Sequence record: PQ306573.1
DNA: 64,000 bases
Source of the DNA: Escherichia phage vB_EcoM_PTE-Eco05
Direction: 5' to 3' (one strand)
The position numbers and the translations under genes are program-made. Shown one piece after another: positions 37,333-64,000 of the stretch. The notes below the pieces were generated by a model, which worked only from the letters and a program-made list of their open reading frames with translations, was not told where the DNA came from and did no database searches. Position 1 is the first letter of the stretch, and each line of letters begins with the position of its first letter.

Positions 37333-37968
37333 ATGAAAACTACACCAATCACTATCGCTATTGACGCAATCGTAAAACAAGCTTCATCTCTTGCCACTAT
37401 GGCTAAAGTAATTAGTCAAAACCCTGCTCGGTATAATGCTATTCTTGAAACTCTTCGTCGCCCTGGACTGAGTAATTATGAAAGTCGTGTAATTATTACA
37501 GGTGTTGGTAAGAACGCTAATATCGCAACTAAAGCTTCCGAGACTTTTGCTTCACTAGGTATTCCTAGCATGTATTTGAACACTGGGCATTATTCTCATG
37601 GTGACGCAGGATTTATTGCACCTAATGATGTATTAGTTCACATCAGCCGTTCTGGTAAGACTGAAGAAATGATAGGTGTTGCTAAACATCTTCGTATGAT
37701 TCGTCCTCAGGTTAAACAGATTCTGTTACATTGTAACCCTGACATTCCACAAGAATACGAAGCTCTTTTTGATTATACGTTCTGTACTGGTATCGCGGTA
37801 GAAGTTGACGAGAACTCTTTAGCTCCGACAATGTCTACTACATTGTTGTTAGCGCTTATCGATACGTTCGCTATCAACCTTTCGTCTGAACGTGGATTTA
37901 CCTCTAATGATTTCCTTAAGTTCCATCCAGGCGGTGCACTAGGTGCCATGTTACGAGGCGAACAATGA
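37333..37968 (+). CDS. SIS-domain sugar-phosphate isomerase, KdsD/GutQ-like arabinose-5-phosphate isomerase
   Basis: ITGVGKNANIATKASETFASLGIPS...HGDAGFIAPNDVLVHISRSGKTEE...LAPTMSTTLLLALID...HPGGALG matches API SIS motifs; no CBS domains. Confidence 0.8.
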   Translation: MKTTPITIAIDAIVKQASSLATMAKVISQNPARYNAILETLRRPGLSNYESRVIITGVGKNANIATKASETFASLGIPSMYLNTGHYSHGDAGFIAPNDVLVHISRSGKTEEMIGVAKHLRMIRPQVKQILLHCNPDIPQEYEALFDYTFCTGIAVEVDENSLAPTMSTTLLLALIDTFAINLSSERGFTSNDFLKFHPGGALGAMLRGEQ

Positions 37969-38107
37969 AAGCAATATCAATAGGACTTTTACTATTGATG
38001 CTTGTCATGACTATCTACTGGAGCTTAACGGCTCCAGTAATGATTCCAACACTTGTAATTGGATGGATTATGATTGGACTACAAGCAAAGTATGAATGCT
38101 TTAACTA
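37965..38107 (+). CDS. small hydrophobic membrane peptide (47 aa)
   Basis: ATGA overlap with upstream stop; MKAISIGLLLLMLVMTIYW... Confidence 0.35.
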
Positions 38108-38149
38108 GAATAGTGTACAATACTCCTACTTACCAATGAGGACTTCAAC

Positions 38150-39835
38150 ATGAAAAAAGCTGTTATTCTTGGTGCTGGACTGGCAACTCGTTTGTATCCA
38201 ATAACGCATCATATTCCTAAGGTGCTTGTTAACTATAAACAAGACACTATTCTGAGCAATTTGTATACAATTTATTCTGACCTTGGCGCAGATGAAATTA
38301 TTGTAGTAGTTCATTCAAAATTTGCTGAAACTGTTCGAGCTTATTGTGAGCAAGAAGGGTTCAATGTGACTATTCGTACAGTTGATGAAGCGTATGGTTC
38401 TGCTTATGCTCTTGCTAAATTACACAAAGATTTAGACGGCCATAATGTAATTGTTAACTGGTGTGATATTATTCCCGATTTTGGTTCATGGTCTTGGAAT
38501 GTTAACGCAATCTATGTTAAGGGTGATGAATGTCGGTATAATTTCGATGGTGAAAATATCACTAATGTAGGTGAAACAGGCGGTAATGTTGTAGGAATTT
38601 ATCAGTTCAAAGACTGGGAATTCTATATGGGTTCTACCGATGAGGAAATTCATGAATACTGCAAAGGACGTGATTTCGTAGAATTCCTTTACGGCAGCAC
38701 ATTCAATAAATCAGAGCTTATGAATCTAATTGATTTAGGTGATATGCCTAAACTTGAAAAGGCCCATGAAGTTCGTGAACTGAACCGTAGTTTTAATGCA
38801 GTTGAAATTGGCGAAGAAACTGTAACTAAATTCGCATTAACCGAACAGGGTCGAGCTCTTCAGAAAGATGAGATTTCGTGGTATTTGAAAGTGAAATCAG
38901 ATTCAGTTCCTCAGTTAGTTTCTGTTAATGAAAATAACTTTGAAATGGAACGCATTAAAGGTAAGCCGGCATTTGAATATATTAAATCAAAATCAAGTCT
39001 TGCTCGTCCACAAATTATTGATGCAATTTTAGATGCACTGAAATTCAGCACAGACACTTATTTTGTAAGTCCTGAAACTGTTCGTCGTGATTTCACTAAA
39101 GAATTCTATACGAAAGTTATTGATCGTTGTGAAAGCATTCAACCATTGATTGATTCATTTGGTAAAATCACACATGTGAACTACACTAAGATTGGACGTC
39201 TGAAGCCAATGCTGAAACAAGCTTTAGAACACCTTATTCGTTATCATAACCGTTCTCAGGGACAGTACTCTGTTATTCATGGTGACCCGAACTTCAGTAA
39301 TACTATGATTACTGATAACGGCGAAGTCAAGTTTATCGACCCTCGTGGATATTTTGGCGAAACCAAGATTTACGGGCCAAAATTGTATGATGAAGCTAAA
39401 GTGCTTTACGCTGTTTCAGGTTATGATGAATTCAATGCTAATCCGACCTGGGGACAGTTTACTATTGATGAAACAACTTGTAATGTGACTATTAACATCA
39501 ATCCATTAGTTTACAAATATGGAAAGATGAGTTCGTTTAACGAGTATCATCATTTGGCAGTGGCAATTATCTGGATTGCATTAGGTGGTTATTTCAAGAA
39601 TAATCCACTTAAAGCGGTAGCCGCATATTATAAAGGTATGGAACTTCTGACTAAGCAATTACGTAATATGGGCCGTGTACTTCAAGACGGCTCTATTAGT
39701 TATGACGTAGCAGAACCTGTAACGGCTACTCTGATTACAAAAAATCCTGGTAAATGGGTACTAACTGATAAAGAAACTGGTGTTTCCTATCGTCCAATCG
39801 GTGGCGATATCACTCATCAATGGGAACGAATCTAA
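38150..39835 (+). CDS. bifunctional NDP-sugar pyrophosphorylase / sugar kinase fusion
   Basis: N-terminal AVILGAGLATRLYPITHHIPKVLV nucleotidyltransferase motif; C-terminal IHGDPNFSNTMI and FIDPRGYFG resemble APH/choline-kinase-fold motifs. Confidence 0.75.
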   Translation: MKKAVILGAGLATRLYPITHHIPKVLVNYKQDTILSNLYTIYSDLGADEIIVVVHSKFAETVRAYCEQEGFNVTIRTVDEAYGSAYALAKLHKDLDGHNVIVNWCDIIPDFGSWSWNVNAIYVKGDECRYNFDGENITNVGETGGNVVGIYQFKDWEFYMGSTDEEIHEYCKGRDFVEFLYGSTFNKSELMNLIDLGDMPKLEKAHEVRELNRSFNAVEIGEETVTKFALTEQGRALQKDEISWYLKVKSDSVPQLVSVNENNFEMERIKGKPAFEYIKSKSSLARPQIIDAILDALKFSTDTYFVSPETVRRDFTKEFYTKVIDRCESIQPLIDSFGKITHVNYTKIGRLKPMLKQALEHLIRYHNRSQGQYSVIHGDPNFSNTMITDNGEVKFIDPRGYFGETKIYGPKLYDEAKVLYAVSGYDEFNANPTWGQFTIDETTCNVTININPLVYKYGKMSSFNEYHHLAVAIIWIALGGYFKNNPLKAVAAYYKGMELLTKQLRNMGRVLQDGSISYDVAEPVTATLITKNPGKWVLTDKETGVSYRPIGGDITHQWERI

Positions 39836-40221
39836 TGCACCGTGTAGAAAACATGCTTAATCTTTGTTTTGATGTCGATGATTGTATAACAGAGTGGAAT
39901 AACAATCGTGATTACGTGAACTTCAAACCAGACGTCGAAATGGTGTCTGCCATTAATGCTCTGTATGATGCAGGGCATACCATAACGCTTTACACTGCTC
40001 GCGGTATGAAGTCAGTAGGTCCTGGTCGTATAGCAATTGACATTCTCCCAAGTCTGATTCAGAACTTGGCAAACATTGGCTTGAAGTACCATAATTTGCT
40101 AACACATAAACCAGTATATGATTGGATTATCGACGACAAAGCTATGCGTCCTGACGAATTCAAAGCTCTTATGAATAAAGGCGAATTCGAAACATTTAAA
40201 TCGTATAAACCGAATCTATAA
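39835..40221 (+). CDS. HAD-superfamily phosphatase-like protein
   Basis: FDVDDCIT near N-terminus (HAD motif I-like), later TARG and WIIDD. Confidence 0.55.
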   Translation: MHRVENMLNLCFDVDDCITEWNNNRDYVNFKPDVEMVSAINALYDAGHTITLYTARGMKSVGPGRIAIDILPSLIQNLANIGLKYHNLLTHKPVYDWIIDDKAMRPDEFKALMNKGEFETFKSYKPNL

Positions 40222-40269
40222 TAATTTAAGTAAGACCTGCAAAAAAACCATCGCATCAATTAACGCGAG

Positions 40270-41439
40270 ATGCAAAAAATGAATACTTTTAAAATCGGAA
40301 CGAATTTTGATTTAGCTCTTCTTGATAAAATCGTAGAGCTCAATAAAACTTATCCTAATAGCTTGATAAATGAAGTATACGGCTCTACAAGAGAAATGGC
40401 TTTTGTAGCAGCCAGACCTGATTTTAGGCTTCCTGACGTTGACAAAAAGATGTTAGAAGATTACGTTAAACGTTGTAACGAATTAGGTATTTGCTTTAAC
40501 TATACACTCAACACGATAAATCCTGGTTCAAAAAGAGAACTAGTTGAGTGGAAGAAGAAAGCTATTCAGGATTATGTTCAGTATCTTTGGTCAATAGGCG
40601 TATGGCGTATTACTATCGCTAACCCTGTTGTTATGGAAATTGTTCGTGAAGTCAATAAAGACATTGAGATTGAAGTTTCAACAATTCTACATGTCGATGC
40701 TGTAACTCAAATCAAATACTTGCATGACCAGTATAATATCAAAAAGGTCTGCTGTGGAATTCATAAGAACCGTTCAGTTTCTTTCCTGAAGCGTGCAGCA
40801 GAGTTTTGCAATAAGAACAATATAATATTTGAAGTTCTTGTAAATGAGTTCTGTTCTAATGCTGGTAAAGGGTATACAACACATTGTAGCTATCGTGACT
40901 CTTGCTATATTTTCCATAGTACTGATGTTACAGCTGATGATGCTAAATCCTTAAACGGATATCCTATGCAGCACTGTATTAAAGCTCGTGATACAGACCC
41001 ATTTAACTGGTTGAGAACTCGTTTTGTTCGTCCTCAAGATTTGAAACTTTATAATGATATTGGTATCACTCAATTCAAAGTTTCAGGACGTACAGGTAGC
41101 ACAGACTACATTTTGAAAGTTCTTGAAGCATACGCTTCTGAAAAGTTTGAAGGTAATTTGTTAGAACTGTGGAAGCCTTTAGAGACTATTTTCACTCTTG
41201 AAAACGAAACTGAGTTTTCACATACAGTAAATATTGAAACCTCTTTGTTAGATGGCTTTTTAGAAAAAAGGTGGTTCAGACATCCAGATTTCGATTGTGC
41301 TAATGAAATCTGCGGGACGACGTGTACATATTGTGAAAGATATTATAAACGTCAATTATCTAAAAACGGGTTAGCAGAAAACTCTATATCTATTATTGAT
41401 ATAACTAACTCTGATGACGCTTTGAGGTACCCGGAATGA
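40270..41439 (+). CDS. Cys-rich hypothetical protein of the sugar/modification cluster
   Basis: 389 aa; NEFCSNAGKGYTTHCSYRDSCY and C-terminal CANEICGTTCTYCERYY. Confidence 0.55.
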   Translation: MQKMNTFKIGTNFDLALLDKIVELNKTYPNSLINEVYGSTREMAFVAARPDFRLPDVDKKMLEDYVKRCNELGICFNYTLNTINPGSKRELVEWKKKAIQDYVQYLWSIGVWRITIANPVVMEIVREVNKDIEIEVSTILHVDAVTQIKYLHDQYNIKKVCCGIHKNRSVSFLKRAAEFCNKNNIIFEVLVNEFCSNAGKGYTTHCSYRDSCYIFHSTDVTADDAKSLNGYPMQHCIKARDTDPFNWLRTRFVRPQDLKLYNDIGITQFKVSGRTGSTDYILKVLEAYASEKFEGNLLELWKPLETIFTLENETEFSHTVNIETSLLDGFLEKRWFRHPDFDCANEICGTTCTYCERYYKRQLSKNGLAENSISIIDITNSDDALRYPE

Positions 41440-41675
41440 TTTCTAGAAAAACTTTTAACCACCAACTTAATGAAGAGATTTTGACTATGAAACTGAACAC
41501 TAACGAACAAATTCTTAAAAGGGCCCTGATGGGCCTGTTTGAAACTAAAGCGGCTAAAGTGATTAAAGAACCTGTTCAATTGGAATACTACGCTGATGCA
41601 TTTCTTCATAGTGTTCTTGGAAGTATCGGTGCTGAAGCTTTACGTTATATCAACATTGTCAAGAAATTCAAATAA
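41436..41675 (+). CDS. hypothetical protein
   Basis: 79-aa ORF. Confidence 0.45.
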   Translation: MISRKTFNHQLNEEILTMKLNTNEQILKRALMGLFETKAAKVIKEPVQLEYYADAFLHSVLGSIGAEALRYINIVKKFK

Positions 41676-41717
41676 GCTTTACGAATTGAGTATATAATAA
41701 ATTGTATTGAGGTAAAC

Positions 41718-42434
41718 ATGGGAAAACATAACACAATGAAATATATCAAAGCCGCAGATTTTCAAGCCGCATTTAAAGCAGTCAATCGTGAAATTTTAGA
41801 AAACCCGGAATTCGTAACTGATTCTCGTATTGGACGTTGTAATGAAATTGGGTCTATGACAGTAGTTGTTGACACTCCATCATCATTCAAAATGACCGAC
41901 CCACGTATTAACCGCATCTCTTATGAATATGCCGAAGACTTCTGGAAGTTTATGATTTCTGGTGGTACCAACGCAGAAGAAGCGTTTAAGGCATATCCTA
42001 ATGTCGCTAAATTTATTTCTAAACCAAAATCAGATGTTTTGCCGGCGAACTTCAACACTTTCTATGGTCCTCGCATTGCGGCCCAATTACCAGCTCTTCT
42101 AAAAGAACTTAAAGAGAAGCCTAACTCTCGAAGAGTTGTGTTCCAAATTCTAGAAAGTTCTGATCAGGCTTTGCTTGATTCAGACGAAACGCTTGAATAT
42201 CCATGTACTGACTCAGTGACTTATTATATCCGTGATGGTAAGCTTTATACCCACTGTCATATGCGTTCTCAGAACTGCGCTGTTGTTATGCAGTTGGATT
42301 TTTATCTCCAAGGAAAATTACTTCATTATATCGCTAACGAATGCGGTGTAGAAGTTGGTGATTATACTCATACCATGGTAAGTGCCCATGTGTTTGAACG
42401 TGATTTTGATTATGTTAAAGGATTCCTTGACTAA
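41718..42434 (+). CDS. thymidylate-synthase-fold pyrimidine hydroxymethylase (divergent dCMP hydroxymethylase-like)
   Basis: NSRRVVFQIL and YPCTDSVTYYIRDGKL...MRSQNCAVVMQLDFY align with TS/CH core motifs incl. catalytic Cys; same position as T4 gene 42. Confidence 0.65.
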   Translation: MGKHNTMKYIKAADFQAAFKAVNREILENPEFVTDSRIGRCNEIGSMTVVVDTPSSFKMTDPRINRISYEYAEDFWKFMISGGTNAEEAFKAYPNVAKFISKPKSDVLPANFNTFYGPRIAAQLPALLKELKEKPNSRRVVFQILESSDQALLDSDETLEYPCTDSVTYYIRDGKLYTHCHMRSQNCAVVMQLDFYLQGKLLHYIANECGVEVGDYTHTMVSAHVFERDFDYVKGFLD

Positions 42435-43333
42435 TGGCTATTTTCCGCGTACCAATCTTGAGTATGCGGTCTTATGAAACTGGACAGTATGCTATCCTTA
42501 AGGATGGCAACTTCCAACTTCATTTGCACCGTGCTAATCCGGGTGATGTGATTACATATCCACGTAATGCATCTGATATTAAAGAATGCGAACGTCTTTT
42601 TCCAGAATTTAAGTTTGTTCCATTATGGTATAAAGATAACGCGTATAACACTCGTAAATATTTCTGGTCTGAAAATGAATTTGTGGTTGATTCATTAATT
42701 GCTTATTATGATTGTGATTTTCTAATCACAGATATCACTGGATATGACGGCGCTTTTGATGTGGAATTCAATTTCAATATCACTGCAGACCCTAATAAAC
42801 CACGTTTTTATATTGACGAATTCTTAAAAACTGATATGTTGTCGGTTAATCGTTCACTTCAAACTACTGTGTTGAATGAACGTCAAAAAGAAGTGCTGGT
42901 TAACGCAGGTGCAGATGGTAATAAGATTATCGTAACGCAGAAAGTTATACGTCCTTCCATCATGCAGCGTCTTGTAGGTGATTTGGCTCCTATTTATCTA
43001 GATGGTATTTTTCATCCATTTCGAATTAGTGACCCGTGCTATCGTTTTGAACAAGTGGTTGAATGTGCAATTCAATTAGGCCAACCGCTTTATATAACCG
43101 ATCCAAATAATAGCTTCGACAGAAATAAGTATCCTGAAGAAGCGCTGATTCGAATTTTTAAACCAACTAAAACAGAGTACTATCAAATTCTTAAAGGGCG
43201 TCCTAAAATTCAATATTTCGAAAATCCTGAAGAAGTATTCCATCCAGGTCTTGGTGAGTTCATCTACTTTAATGCTTTAATTTCTTCGCCGTATAATATA
43301 CCTAAATATGAAGATGTCGTAATCGAGGAATAA
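42434..43333 (+). CDS. hypothetical protein (candidate DNA sugar transferase by context only)
   Basis: 299-aa ORF between hydroxymethylase and kinase; no motif recognised. Confidence 0.5.
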   Translation: MAIFRVPILSMRSYETGQYAILKDGNFQLHLHRANPGDVITYPRNASDIKECERLFPEFKFVPLWYKDNAYNTRKYFWSENEFVVDSLIAYYDCDFLITDITGYDGAFDVEFNFNITADPNKPRFYIDEFLKTDMLSVNRSLQTTVLNERQKEVLVNAGADGNKIIVTQKVIRPSIMQRLVGDLAPIYLDGIFHPFRISDPCYRFEQVVECAIQLGQPLYITDPNNSFDRNKYPEEALIRIFKPTKTEYYQILKGRPKIQYFENPEEVFHPGLGEFIYFNALISSPYNIPKYEDVVIEE

Positions 43334-43334
43334 A

Positions 43335-43883
43335 ATGGCTAAAATTATTTTAGTAGATGGCCCAGATAATGCTGGTAAAACAACTTTCATTAATGACATA
43401 ATGGAAATTAGTGAAAGATATGTAAAGATTGATTTCCCTAAACGAACAGTTGATGGGCGTTTCGATGTTAAGTCTCGAAATGAAGTTGGCTGCTTCGAAA
43501 CGATGTTGAATTATTTAGACCCTACTAAGATTTATCTGTTAGACCGTGGATATATTAGTAACTGGGTTTATGGACGTATTCGACAAGATGCGGACTCGGT
43601 TCTTGACGTTTATGAACAGGATTATGTTCGTCTTTGCCAAAACCATGATGTGTTCACAATTATTTTAACACGTAACGAAATGACTGAAAGTTTTGAAGAC
43701 GACCTTATTACTTTGTCCTCATTCGGTTTTAATACAGTCATTTCACATTTTGAAGAGTTTGCAATTCATAACAAAATCCAAACGTATCAATTACTTAATC
43801 ATGATGGTGCTAACAAAGTTATAGGATTTAATGCAAGCGAACGTAATTATTTGATTACAGAAATTATCAAATGGGCTCGTTAA
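43335..43883 (+). CDS. P-loop nucleoside-monophosphate kinase-like protein
   Basis: ILVDGPDNAGKTT Walker A and LLDRGYIS (thymidylate-kinase DR-like). Confidence 0.6.
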   Translation: MAKIILVDGPDNAGKTTFINDIMEISERYVKIDFPKRTVDGRFDVKSRNEVGCFETMLNYLDPTKIYLLDRGYISNWVYGRIRQDADSVLDVYEQDYVRLCQNHDVFTIILTRNEMTESFEDDLITLSSFGFNTVISHFEEFAIHNKIQTYQLLNHDGANKVIGFNASERNYLITEIIKWAR

Positions 43884-58595: not shown

Positions 58596-58660
58596 AATCA
58601 GTTTACAACCAAGGATGGTTGGAGTATAATGAATTCAACTTAAACAAAGAGAGAAAAAAT

Positions 58661-59125
58661 ATGATTAATATTGGTGAAATTAAACGTGTATCGACAGCGT
58701 CTCGTTCTAAAGCTGCAGGAAAGCTGGTTGAAGTAGTAGGACTTCGTACTAATGGCATGGGCCGTATTAAAGAAGTTAAAGTTCGAATCATTCCTAGTTC
58801 TGGAAAAACTGAAACTCAGTTCGCCTATGTAAGTCCTAAATTCTTTGAAACTCGTGTAAGTGCCCACTTTGCTTCAAGCGATATCGTTGAGCCTACTACA
58901 CAGTTCAAATGGGCCCTTTGCAAAGGCGTTGAATTTATAACCGATAAAGAATTTGATTACATCGACGAATACGGCTATCCAAGCACAACTGATACCATGT
59001 GTGGCTTCATTAGTGACCAATGGGTTGAAGATGGTGAAAAGTTATACAATATCGTATTCTTAGGTGACTTCCGAGTTGTTAAAGAATCTGAAATCACTCG
59101 CTATGTGTCTCCTCGTAAAGCTTAA
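58661..59125 (+). CDS. hypothetical protein, tandem paralogue A
   Basis: shares VASRSK(A/V)AGKLVEV and GFISDQWVEDG(E/V)KLYNIVF with the next ORF. Confidence 0.55.
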   Translation: MINIGEIKRVSTASRSKAAGKLVEVVGLRTNGMGRIKEVKVRIIPSSGKTETQFAYVSPKFFETRVSAHFASSDIVEPTTQFKWALCKGVEFITDKEFDYIDEYGYPSTTDTMCGFISDQWVEDGEKLYNIVFLGDFRVVKESEITRYVSPRKA

Positions 59126-59134
59126 GGAATTATT

Positions 59135-59554
59135 ATGAATATTGTAAATCTCTCTACAGGTAATTACGTATATGTATCTGTTGCTTCTCGCTCTAAAGTT
59201 GCCGGGAAGTTGGTTGAAGTTCTTTCTGTGAGTGATCCGGTTTTTGGACGTAACGAAGTTAAAGTTCGTGATGCTAATGGTAATATTGGCTACGTCTCAA
59301 GCCAGTTCATTGAGCCAGAAGAACGTGCGTTCAAATGGAAACTGTGCAGGTCTGTTTTAGTTGTAAAAGACCATGAATTTACTATTGCTGCTGCAACTGA
59401 CGGGTCTCCATGGACAACGAATCAAGTTGCTGGTTTTATTTCGGACCAATGGGTAGAAGATGGTGTTAAGCTTTATAACATCGTTTTCGCTGGACAGTTC
59501 ATGGTAGTTCCTGAGTTCCAAATCAAAAAATATTGTCCAGCATCTTTTGCATAA
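59135..59554 (+). CDS. hypothetical protein, tandem paralogue B
   Basis: see paralogue A. Confidence 0.55.
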   Translation: MNIVNLSTGNYVYVSVASRSKVAGKLVEVLSVSDPVFGRNEVKVRDANGNIGYVSSQFIEPEERAFKWKLCRSVLVVKDHEFTIAAATDGSPWTTNQVAGFISDQWVEDGVKLYNIVFAGQFMVVPEFQIKKYCPASFA

Positions 59555-60833: not shown

Positions 60834-60836
60834 TAA

Positions 60837-61016
60837 TGCCGTTATACGACTATAAATGTCAATCTGAAGATTGTGGCCATGAATATGAAAAAATTAAAAG
60901 GATTTCTGAACGAGAAAACGATGTTTGCCCTGAATGTCATCGTCTGTCTACTCGTCGGGTTTCTGCTCCTAAACATGTGAACGGTGGTTTTTACGACTTA
61001 CTTAAGAAGGGTTAAT
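60837..61016 (+). CDS. small zinc-ribbon protein (59 aa)
   Basis: CQSEDC...CPEC four-Cys ribbon. Confidence 0.4.
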
Positions 61017-61506: not shown

Positions 61507-63324
61507 ATGATTAAAAATGAAATTAAGGTATTGTCAGATGTAGAACATATTAAGAAACGTAGTGGTATGTATATTGGTTCTTCTGCTAAAGAAGCACATG
61601 AGCGTTTTTTGTTTGGTAAATATCAACAAGTTGAATATGTTCCTGGTCTGGTTAAATTAATCGATGAGATTATTGACAACTCGGTTGATGAAGCTATTCG
61701 TACATCATTTAAGTTTGCAAATAAAATTGATGTGCAAATTAAAAATAATCAAGTTTCGGTGGAAGATAACGGACGTGGTATTCCTCAAGGTTTAGTTACC
61801 GACCAAACAGGTGAACAAATTCCTGGGCCTGTAGCAGCCTGGACTATTCCAAAGGCTGGTGGTAACTTTGGTGATGATTCTGAACGCAAGACTGGTGGTA
61901 TGAACGGCGTCGGGAGTAGTTTAACTAATATCTTCTCTACGTTGTTTACAGGCATCACGTCAGATGGCGAAAATGAAATCACTGTTAACTGTTCAAACGG
62001 AATGGAAAACAAATCATGGTCTTCTAAGAAATCTAAAGGTAAAGGCACTAAAGTAATCTTCACTCCTGATTTCACTTCATTTGAAGAGCATAATTTATCT
62101 CAAATTTATTTAGATATTACTTTAGACCGACTTCAAACATTGGCAGTCGTTTATCCTGATATCAAGTTCACATTTAATGGTAAAAAGGTTGATGGTAATT
62201 TTAAACGATTTGCTAAACAATTTGGTGAAGATAACATCATTCAAGAAAATGATAAAGTCTCTATAGCATTCACAACATCACCCGATGGCTTCCGTCATTT
62301 AACTTATGTGAATAACATCCATACTAAAAATGGTGGTCATCATGTTGAATGTGTAATGGATGATATCTGCGAACATCTTTTACCGGGTATTAAAAAGAAA
62401 TATAAGGGTATTGAAGTCACTAAAGCTCGTGTTAAAGAATGCCTCACAATGTTGATGTTTATTAGAGACATGAGCAACATGCGTTTTGATTCTCAGACTA
62501 AAGAACGTTTAACGTCAACGTATGGTGATATTCGTAATCATATCCAATTAGATGCTAAAAAAATTGCTCAGGCACTTCTTAAAAACGAAGCCTTGATTAT
62601 GCCTATTGTTGAAGCAGCATTAGCTCGTAAATTGGCAGCAGAAAAGGCTGCAGAAACTAAAGCAGCTAAAAAGGCAACTAAAGCTAAGGTTCATAAGCAT
62701 ATTAAAGCTAACCAATGTGGTAAAGATGCAGATACGACATTGTTCTTAACAGAAGGTGATTCTGCAATTGGTTATCTCATTGATGTTCGTGACCGTGAAC
62801 TACACGGTGGATTCCCATTACGTGGTAAGGTGATGAATAGCTGGGGTATGTCATATGCTGATATGATGAAGAACAAAGAGCTCTTCGATATCTGTGCTAT
62901 CACAGGTCTTATTCTTGGTGAAAAGGCAGAGAATACGAACTATCGTAATATTGCAATTATGACCGATGCCGATCACGACGGTCTTGGAAGTATTTATCCT
63001 GCTTTGCTTGCTTTCTTTAGTAATTGGCCCGAATTGTTTGAACAAGGACGTATTCGCTTTGTTAAAACACCTGTAATTATTGCACAAATTGGCAAAACTC
63101 AAAAATGGTTTTATACTGTAGCTGAGTATGAAGAAGTTAAAGATACACTGCCTAAGCATAGTATTCGATACATCAAGGGATTAGGCTCCCTTGAAAAGTC
63201 AGAGTATCGTGAAATGATTCAGAACCCTGTGTACGACGTAGTTAAACTTCCTGAAAATTGGAAAGAACTCTTTGAAATGTTGTTGGGTGATGATTCAGAA
63301 CTTCGTAAAGAATGGATGTCCTAA
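61507..63324 (+). CDS. 39: DNA topoisomerase II large (ATPase) subunit, uninterrupted
   Basis: 605 aa colinear with T4 gp39 plus gp60 region. Confidence 0.93.
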   Translation: MIKNEIKVLSDVEHIKKRSGMYIGSSAKEAHERFLFGKYQQVEYVPGLVKLIDEIIDNSVDEAIRTSFKFANKIDVQIKNNQVSVEDNGRGIPQGLVTDQTGEQIPGPVAAWTIPKAGGNFGDDSERKTGGMNGVGSSLTNIFSTLFTGITSDGENEITVNCSNGMENKSWSSKKSKGKGTKVIFTPDFTSFEEHNLSQIYLDITLDRLQTLAVVYPDIKFTFNGKKVDGNFKRFAKQFGEDNIIQENDKVSIAFTTSPDGFRHLTYVNNIHTKNGGHHVECVMDDICEHLLPGIKKKYKGIEVTKARVKECLTMLMFIRDMSNMRFDSQTKERLTSTYGDIRNHIQLDAKKIAQALLKNEALIMPIVEAALARKLAAEKAAETKAAKKATKAKVHKHIKANQCGKDADTTLFLTEGDSAIGYLIDVRDRELHGGFPLRGKVMNSWGMSYADMMKNKELFDICAITGLILGEKAENTNYRNIAIMTDADHDGLGSIYPALLAFFSNWPELFEQGRIRFVKTPVIIAQIGKTQKWFYTVAEYEEVKDTLPKHSIRYIKGLGSLEKSEYREMIQNPVYDVVKLPENWKELFEMLLGDDSELRKEWMS

Positions 63325-63345
63325 GCTCCTTCGGGAGCTTCATTT
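63323..63345 (+). terminator. rho-independent terminator (UUCG tetraloop)
   Basis: AAGCTCC-TTCG-GGAGCTT then T-rich. Confidence 0.55.
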
Positions 63346-63366: not shown

Positions 63367-64000
63367 ATGAAAGTTATGTTTATCCCATCTCGCGCAGTCC
63401 CATTTAACCCAGAACGTGTACAAGGTGGTCTTGAAGCAGTACATTTAAATGTGTTGAAATATTTAGTTTCTATCGGTGCCGATATTGATTATATTGGTTT
63501 TGATAATGACACGTTTGGTGACTGGAAAGTTAATCATCATCCTGTTGGTCATCTGACTAAATTCAGTCTAGGTATGAGTTATACTATGGCTCGTAAGATT
63601 GTTGAACTAGCCGGCATTAATGAGTACGATTTCGTTGTTACAATGGAACCGACCAAACTAACCGTTCAGGCAATTAAAGACGCAGGTCTCTCTAAAGTTC
63701 ATAAGAATTTTATGGCAACACCATTTGAACCAGTATCTCGTGGCATTGTTCAAATTTGGGACCAGACTATTCAAATTCGTAAGAACGGTGGTAAGAGTTA
63801 TGCTCCTACTAAAGCCTTCCGTGAATTTGAACGCAAATATTGTTATATGACTTCAGGTCTGACTGACAAAATTGATTATGATTATTGGCGAGCAAATCCG
63901 TTGTTTGAAACCGAAGATTATCCGGTTATTTGTTTGAATGAGAAACCTGAAGTTCTTCCGGCGACTGATCTGATTATTAGTGCACAACGTTATGACACTA
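63367..64000 (+). CDS. 3'-truncated ORF, possibly glycosyltransferase-like (tentative)
   Basis: open frame to window end; N-terminus MKVMFIPSRAVPFNPERVQGGLEAVHLNVLKYL loosely resembles GT-B N-terminal domain; not rIIA-like. Confidence 0.4.
   Translation, partial: MKVMFIPSRAVPFNPERVQGGLEAVHLNVLKYLVSIGADIDYIGFDNDTFGDWKVNHHPVGHLTKFSLGMSYTMARKIVELAGINEYDFVVTMEPTKLTVQAIKDAGLSKVHKNFMATPFEPVSRGIVQIWDQTIQIRKNGGKSYAPTKAFREFERKYCYMTSGLTDKIDYDYWRANPLFETEDYPVICLNEKPEVLPATDLIISAQRYDT

Follow-up and report, generated by a model that had tools for sequence, protein, structure and literature searches.

A Mosigvirus gene cut at the edge of the window encodes a GT-B-type protein that probably adds the second arabinose to phage DNA

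Arabinose was found in the DNA of phage RB69 by Thomas et al. (2018), who named ORF003c as the arabinosyltransferase via its HMM/HHpred similarity to GT-B enzymes of phages and bacteria (PMC6024577). Lee et al. (2026) revised the chemistry to beta-D-Araf-(1-3)-alpha-D-Araf-5-hydroxy-2′-deoxycytidine and showed that 5-hydroxy-dCMP is the product of a ThyA homolog; in the scheme that they proposed, the first transferase is gp46:47, with gp3 as ‘beta-arabinosyltransferase 2’. When purified gp76 and gp77 of phage DLP3 were combined, RB69 DNA was extended by a third arabinofuranose with UDP-Araf as donor, each protein being inactive singly (PMC13326640). A second-arabinose role for the gene between topoisomerase and rIIA has been put forward (PMC13326640, PMC13390438), and the Durham collection paper reports a 1:4 ratio of mono- to di-arabinosylated dC in NicPhage, the closest relative of the DNA studied here (PMC13390438). 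According to a preprint, LC53 carries a single-arabinose modification and Bas46 a double one; the DNA of LC53 and Thanatos, which have the first transferase and lack the family described below, is still arabinosylated, with one sugar. A further paper, citing Mahler et al. 2025, reports that Bas46 became more sensitive to a defence system once ‘Aat’ was deleted. Two structures of the glycosyltransferase of phage HY126 have been deposited, one apo (PDB 9IQZ) and one in complex with UDP (9IR0), UDP binding being given by the depositor's entry title; their probable source is He et al. 2026 (Nat Chem Biol). The gene, the crystal structure and the proposed role are already published; in the literature excluding He et al. 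2026 and Mahler et al. 2025 we found no direct assay of the protein or a close ortholog.

The window analysed here, a stretch of 64,000 nucleotides from Escherichia phage vB_EcoM_PTE-Eco05 (PQ306573.1), was assigned by megablast to the genus Mosigvirus (RB69-like Tevenvirinae): 80% or more of its length is covered by each of 153 records, and the best match is Escherichia phage vB_Eco_NicPhage with 98.9% nucleotide identity. At its end, downstream of gene 39, lies an open reading frame (ORF) whose translation starts with MKVMFIPSRAVPFNPERVQGGLEAVHLNVLKYLVSIGADIDYIGF, identical to the quotation in a preliminary description of this DNA. The gene and its surrounding signals are:

61507-63324, plus strand: gene 39, large subunit of topoisomerase II, 605 aa in one ORF; as upstream neighbour it anchors the synteny
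63323-63340, plus strand: terminator-like hairpin AAGCTCC-TTCG-GGAGCTT, reaching 63349 with its T-rich tail and overlapping the gene 39 stop codon
63356-63359, plus strand: Shine-Dalgarno-like AAGG, 7 nt 5′ of the ATG (sequence read directly)
63367-64000, plus strand: the ORF, with its ATG at 63367-63369 and no stop up to base 63999 (211 codons)

The gap between the end of gene 39 and the ATG measures 42 nt. The hairpin in it is labelled ‘terminator’ in several related records, and a search between hairpin or gene 39 and the ATG yielded no promoter-like site that stood out, the counts lying within the shuffle expectation; expression of the ORF therefore probably depends on read-through or on promoters further upstream. 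Gene 39 itself is one continuous frame of 605 aa; its counterpart in T4 is split into genes 39 and 60, and a translational bypass of the gene 60 type is not expected here since the gene is unsplit. Upstream of it we noticed two adjacent ORFs 3′ of dexA (58619-59125 and 59135-59554, plus strand; 168 and 139 aa), tandem paralogs as both carry ASRSK.AGKLVEV and GFISDQWVEDG.KLYNIVF, which are labelled as transcriptional regulators in some relatives. A small zinc-ribbon protein of 59 aa with two CxxC pairs (MPLYDYKCQSEDCGHEY...CPECH) is encoded at 60836-61015 (plus strand), between the goF-like ORFs and gene 39.

The truncation at the window end hides the stop codon in this genome, and this is the sole point that speaks for a chance frame or a decaying pseudogene remnant 3′ of gene 39. 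Against it stands the probability of ∼1.5e-7 that a run of 211 codons stays open by chance at the base composition of the window (GC 0.371); the remaining five frames contain 6-31 stops over the same stretch. The GC content at codon positions 1/2/3 (0.52/0.36/0.27) and the codon usage, which correlates with that of gene 39 (r = 0.81), are gene-like. Furthermore, full-length orthologs at ≥95% identity occur in ∼155 phage records, and every family-invariant residue visible in the fragment is intact: M1, G20, G21, L22, P59, E94, T118, P119, R125 and G142 as well as F151, V196, Q207, R208 and D210. The chance or pseudogene reading is effectively refuted, and the ORF is confirmed as a real, conserved gene cut at the window edge.

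On sequence grounds, the ORF is the ortholog of RB69 ORF003c/gp3 and the same gene as Bas46_0103, NICP_027 and Shf125875 gp003. The fragment is identical to NicPhage NICP_027 at 210 of 211 residues, and a full-length ortholog (P0001) shares 98.9% identity with RB69 ORF003c (gp3, NP_861693). The gene spans 1101 nt (366 aa) in annotated relatives, of which the window holds 211 codons, that is the 5′ 58%; the missing 3′ 42% amounts to 465 nt. Upstream, gene 39 is seen in the window itself; downstream, rIIA.1 and rIIA come next in relatives at 98-99% nucleotide identity, followed by rIIB. The preliminary description had reported a truncated ORF 3′ of gene 39 starting at 63367, at the position of rIIA.1 and rIIA in T4: this gene order bears out the position, and the frame itself is borne out by its 211 open codons and by matches to PHROG 8302 (E = 3.5e-121, profile positions 1-211 of 366) and PDB 9IQZ (E = 7e-140). 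PHROG 8302 is listed as unknown function. Only seven residues of the 211 differ from the HY126 protein, all of them conservative or surface substitutions and none at an invariant position. Most of the ∼155 Mosigvirus records annotate the gene as ‘hypothetical protein’, and a few as hmC-arabinosyltransferase or DNA alpha-glucosyltransferase.

Searches of Pfam (E ≤ 10) and NCBIfam gave zero matches for the fragment and two full-length orthologs, so that the family was assigned via structure and profile comparison. An exhaustive search among 1.84 billion clusters found 16 family representatives, 10 of them at E ≤ 1e-10; the family is therefore small and phage-restricted. A word-indexed homolog search returned the protein's own cluster alone, and the family profile matched no PDB sequence besides 9IQZ. 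In one record, Shigella phage JK45 (MK962757, 1498-3101), which is classed as Tequatrovirus despite its Mosigvirus-type gene, an ORF of 136 aa begins 92 nt after the end of the full-length ortholog (1498-2598), and its residues 7-136 repeat residues 237-366 of the ortholog with 99% identity. Either part of the 3′ end has been duplicated in tandem or the assembly is at fault here.

The fold of the full-length ortholog was modelled with AlphaFold using a 10-row alignment (pLDDT 91.9; 39 from the single sequence). It is predicted to be a two-domain GT-B fold: two Rossmann-like beta/alpha/beta domains are present, and the C-terminal helices cross back to the N-domain. Superposition of the model on the crystal structure deposited as ‘phage HY126 glycosyltransferase with UDP’ gives a TM score of 0.96 (98% identity), and the next structural neighbours are GT4-type glycosyltransferases. 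Within this model the fragment covers the whole N-terminal, acceptor-side domain and the first strand of the C-terminal, UDP-binding domain, which includes the invariant Q207, R208 and D210. A GT-B-like N-terminal Rossmann domain had been suspected from the first ∼45 residues, and the suspicion holds: the GG of ‘GGLEAV’ is invariant across the family, and the full-length protein gave no match to a family of non-glycosyltransferases.

The pairs G20/G21, R208/R214 and E276/E281 are invariant across sequences that are only 35-44% identical, and this speaks for conservation of the active site. The EX7E motif in the C-terminal domain of GT4 enzymes, a pair of Glu spaced by eight residues, is altered: its second Glu is kept (E281, invariant), its first position aligns to T272/G273, and the remodelled motif, at residues 272-281 of the full-length protein and outside the window, reads E-X4-E with E276 and E281 both invariant. 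Neither the fragment nor the two full-length orthologs reach the gathering score of Pfam Glycos_transf_1/Glyco_transf_4; a distant relative (P0014) alone passes Glycos_transf_1 (34.6 bits versus a cutoff of 26.4), and the family profile matches this relative with 95.4% probability over the nucleotide-binding helix. The protein is a GT-B with GT4-like architecture and is not filed as a GT4 member, the sequence link to GT4 being remote. Its mechanism cannot simply be transferred from GT4, because the first EX7E Glu is missing and the relatives are retaining enzymes, whereas the reported second linkage is beta. The family could in principle form a mechanistically distinct subfamily, either inverting on a GT4-like frame or active solely in complex with the first transferase. 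The latter option is hinted at by the mutual need of DLP3 gp76 and gp77; we regard such a subfamily as unlikely, and if it existed the enzyme would not be a routine GT4 member.

A complete arabinosylation cluster is found at 37333-43883, between DNA polymerase and uvsX and ∼20 kb from the ORF:

37333-37968, plus strand: SIS-domain sugar-phosphate isomerase of the arabinose-5-phosphate isomerase type, RB69 gp55 (PMC13326640)
38150-39835, plus strand: bifunctional NTP-transferase/kinase of the RB69 ORF53_52c type, maker of UDP-arabinofuranose (PMC6024577, PMC13326640)
39820-40221, plus strand: ORF of 133 aa at the slot of a HAD-like phosphatase (RB69 gp51, HY126 AfhF type); by position, without Pfam match
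40270-41439, plus strand: Peptidase_U32-family ORF (E = 7e-11)
41718-42434, plus strand: thymidylate-synthase (ThyA) homolog, positional ortholog of RB69 gp48, the 5-hydroxy-dCMP synthase (PMC13326640)
42434-43333, plus strand: candidate first (base-proximal) arabinosyltransferase, 299 aa, ortholog of RB69 gp46:47 (PMC13326640)
43335-43883, plus strand: ORF of 182 aa at the slot of a nucleotide-kinase-like protein (RB69 gp45, DLP3 gp78); without Pfam match

The candidate first transferase is also orthologous to DLP3 gp79 (46% identity). A paralogous relationship between it and the ORF was rejected, as the two show no detectable sequence similarity (E = 17). The Peptidase_U32-family ORF is missing from the otherwise colinear clusters of the Acinetobacter phages Maestro and DLP3. 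Among the members of the U32 family are factors that serve to hydroxylate pyrimidines of rRNA and tRNA at C5, which makes this ORF suggestive within a 5-hydroxycytosine pathway; the ThyA homolog and the kinase, however, are reported to be sufficient.

Among 50,697 phage records, 348 contain the first transferase, including phages of Escherichia, Acinetobacter, Klebsiella, Serratia, Enterobacter, Proteus and Yersinia. The ORF family occurs in only 211: Mosigvirus genomes carry one copy and Acinetobacter phages two, and a single record with an organism name beginning ‘Tegunavirus’ was found as well. In ∼137 records the first transferase is present and the ORF family absent; Yersinia phages with the first transferase, for example phiR1-RT, are not among the ORF-family matches. 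This distribution bears on the original proposal for RB69 ORF003c, that the protein is the primary DNA arabinosyltransferase which places the first sugar directly on the modified base. The proposal goes back to the choice of ORF003c via HMM/HHpred (PMC6024577) and is echoed by the annotation of Bas46_0103 (BASEL phage Bas46) as ‘putative hmC-arabinosyltransferase’ and by the label ‘putative DNA alpha-glucosyltransferase’ on some Acinetobacter homologs. However, the ∼137 records have the other transferase of the cluster without the ORF family, phages of the LC53 and Thanatos type without this family still carry one arabinose, and the base is 5-hydroxy-C and not hmC. The copy number of the ORF family moreover climbs with chain length: zero, one and two copies match one, two and three arabinoses per chain. 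We hence consider a primary transferase quite improbable.

Maestro and DLP3 contain two ORF paralogs (40-43% identical to the ORF protein) inside the cluster, directly after the first transferase and the kinase. These paralogs are 56% identical to each other and 42-44% to the Mosigvirus protein; a 1:1 orthology of the ORF with DLP3 gp77 (or gp76) was therefore rejected, and the duplication is lineage-specific. That the Mosigvirus protein has no 1:1 ortholog in either Acinetobacter paralog is a point against the second-arabinose role. A GT-fold protein could also serve a purpose other than catalysis of the second transfer, as a partner or scaffold that the first transferase cannot do without, or on a different acceptor, which could be a nucleotide precursor, a protein or a component of the host envelope. 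Such a role would suit the joint but never single activity of DLP3 gp76 and gp77, the absent first Glu of EX7E and the distance of 20 kb between the Mosigvirus gene and the pathway cluster. On the other hand, an ortholog was crystallised with UDP bound, the three invariant residue pairs are retained at 35-44% identity, the Acinetobacter homologs directly adjoin the pathway genes, and the homologous DLP3 pair acts on DNA with UDP-Araf. A non-catalytic or otherwise directed protein appears improbable to us, if slightly less so than a primary transferase.

Taking these findings together, we estimate a probability of about 80% that the ORF product is a chain-extending DNA arabinosyltransferase, which transfers a second arabinose onto arabinosyl-5-hydroxycytosine. 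The preliminary description had suggested a second sugar transferase for the modification system; this suggestion gains from the separate, unrelated first transferase in the window and from the role proposed in the papers cited above. The modified base was taken there to be hydroxymethylcytosine and is 5-hydroxycytosine instead (PMC13326640). Since the acceptor is likely the first arabinose already on the DNA, a transfer assay on plain hmC DNA would probably come out negative.

The pathway could proceed as follows. Replication would incorporate 5-hydroxycytosine first, and the unrelated first transferase (42434-43333) would then put an alpha-D-arabinofuranose on its 5-oxygen, with UDP-Araf supplied by the cluster at 37333-43883. 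The ORF enzyme, presumably a soluble two-domain GT-B protein, would bind the UDP-sugar in its C-terminal domain (outside the window) and the acceptor between the two domains, in a cleft to which the N-terminal domain (inside the window) contributes, and would move a second D-arabinofuranose from UDP-Araf onto the first sugar in duplex DNA. The expected product is beta-Araf-(1-3)-alpha-Araf-5-hydroxy-dC, the dominant form in Mosigvirus DNA, which would shield the phage from restriction and CRISPR nucleases. From the gene identity, the predicted fold, the intact invariant residues, the presence of the pathway in the same genome and the rise of copy number with chain length observed here, together with the UDP binding given in the PDB title, the DNA chemistry reported by others for RB69, NicPhage and Bas46 and the UDP-Araf-dependent extension by DLP3 gp76 and gp77, we infer that the ORF protein alone makes the second linkage; how the reported beta configuration would come about on a frame related to retaining enzymes is likewise a matter of inference. 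A single-enzyme, single-step picture may nevertheless be too simple, because the DLP3 enzymes are inactive alone (PMC13326640).

For annotation, the gain is that a gene mostly listed as hypothetical can be described as a DNA arabinosyltransferase of the GT-B type, probably responsible for the second arabinose on 5-hydroxycytosine. The length of the sugar chain affects the restriction, glycosylase and CRISPR defences that a therapeutic phage evades, so that presence and copy number of this gene are of use for predicting from a genome whether its DNA carries one, two or three arabinoses per chain.

Compared with RB69 ORF003c/gp3 and its Mosigvirus orthologs, which share the slot between gene 39 and rIIA.1-rIIA, the length of 366 aa (in the relatives) and the arabinose cluster, nothing substantive differs, the 3′ 42% of the ORF lying outside the window; the HY126 glycosyltransferase (9IQZ/9IR0) is an ortholog from a different isolate. 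DLP3 gp77 and gp76 (likewise Maestro_078 and Maestro_077) belong to the same family and pathway, with 43% and 40% identity over the full length and the same invariant residues; they are two tandem copies within the cluster and a third sugar is made too, whereas Mosigvirus has one copy 20 kb away. Retaining GT-B enzymes of CAZy family GT4, such as BshA, PimA, MshA, WaaG and sucrose-phosphate synthase, match Pfam Glycos_transf_1 and have the full EX7E motif; in contrast, the ORF family is without its first Glu, would have a DNA-borne sugar as acceptor and has a reported product with the beta anomer. These bacterial enzymes are still structurally nearer to the ORF family than the T4 alpha-glucosyltransferase (GT72) and beta-glucosyltransferase (GT63), which show no specific sequence or closest-fold relationship to it. 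The beta-glucosyl-HMC-alpha-glucosyltransferase of T2 and T6 is likewise a second-sugar enzyme and forms a gentiobiosyl unit, but the T2/T6 and T4 enzymes transfer glucose on 5-hydroxymethyl-C, whereas the ORF family, which has no sequence similarity to them, would build arabinofuranose chains on 5-hydroxy-C.
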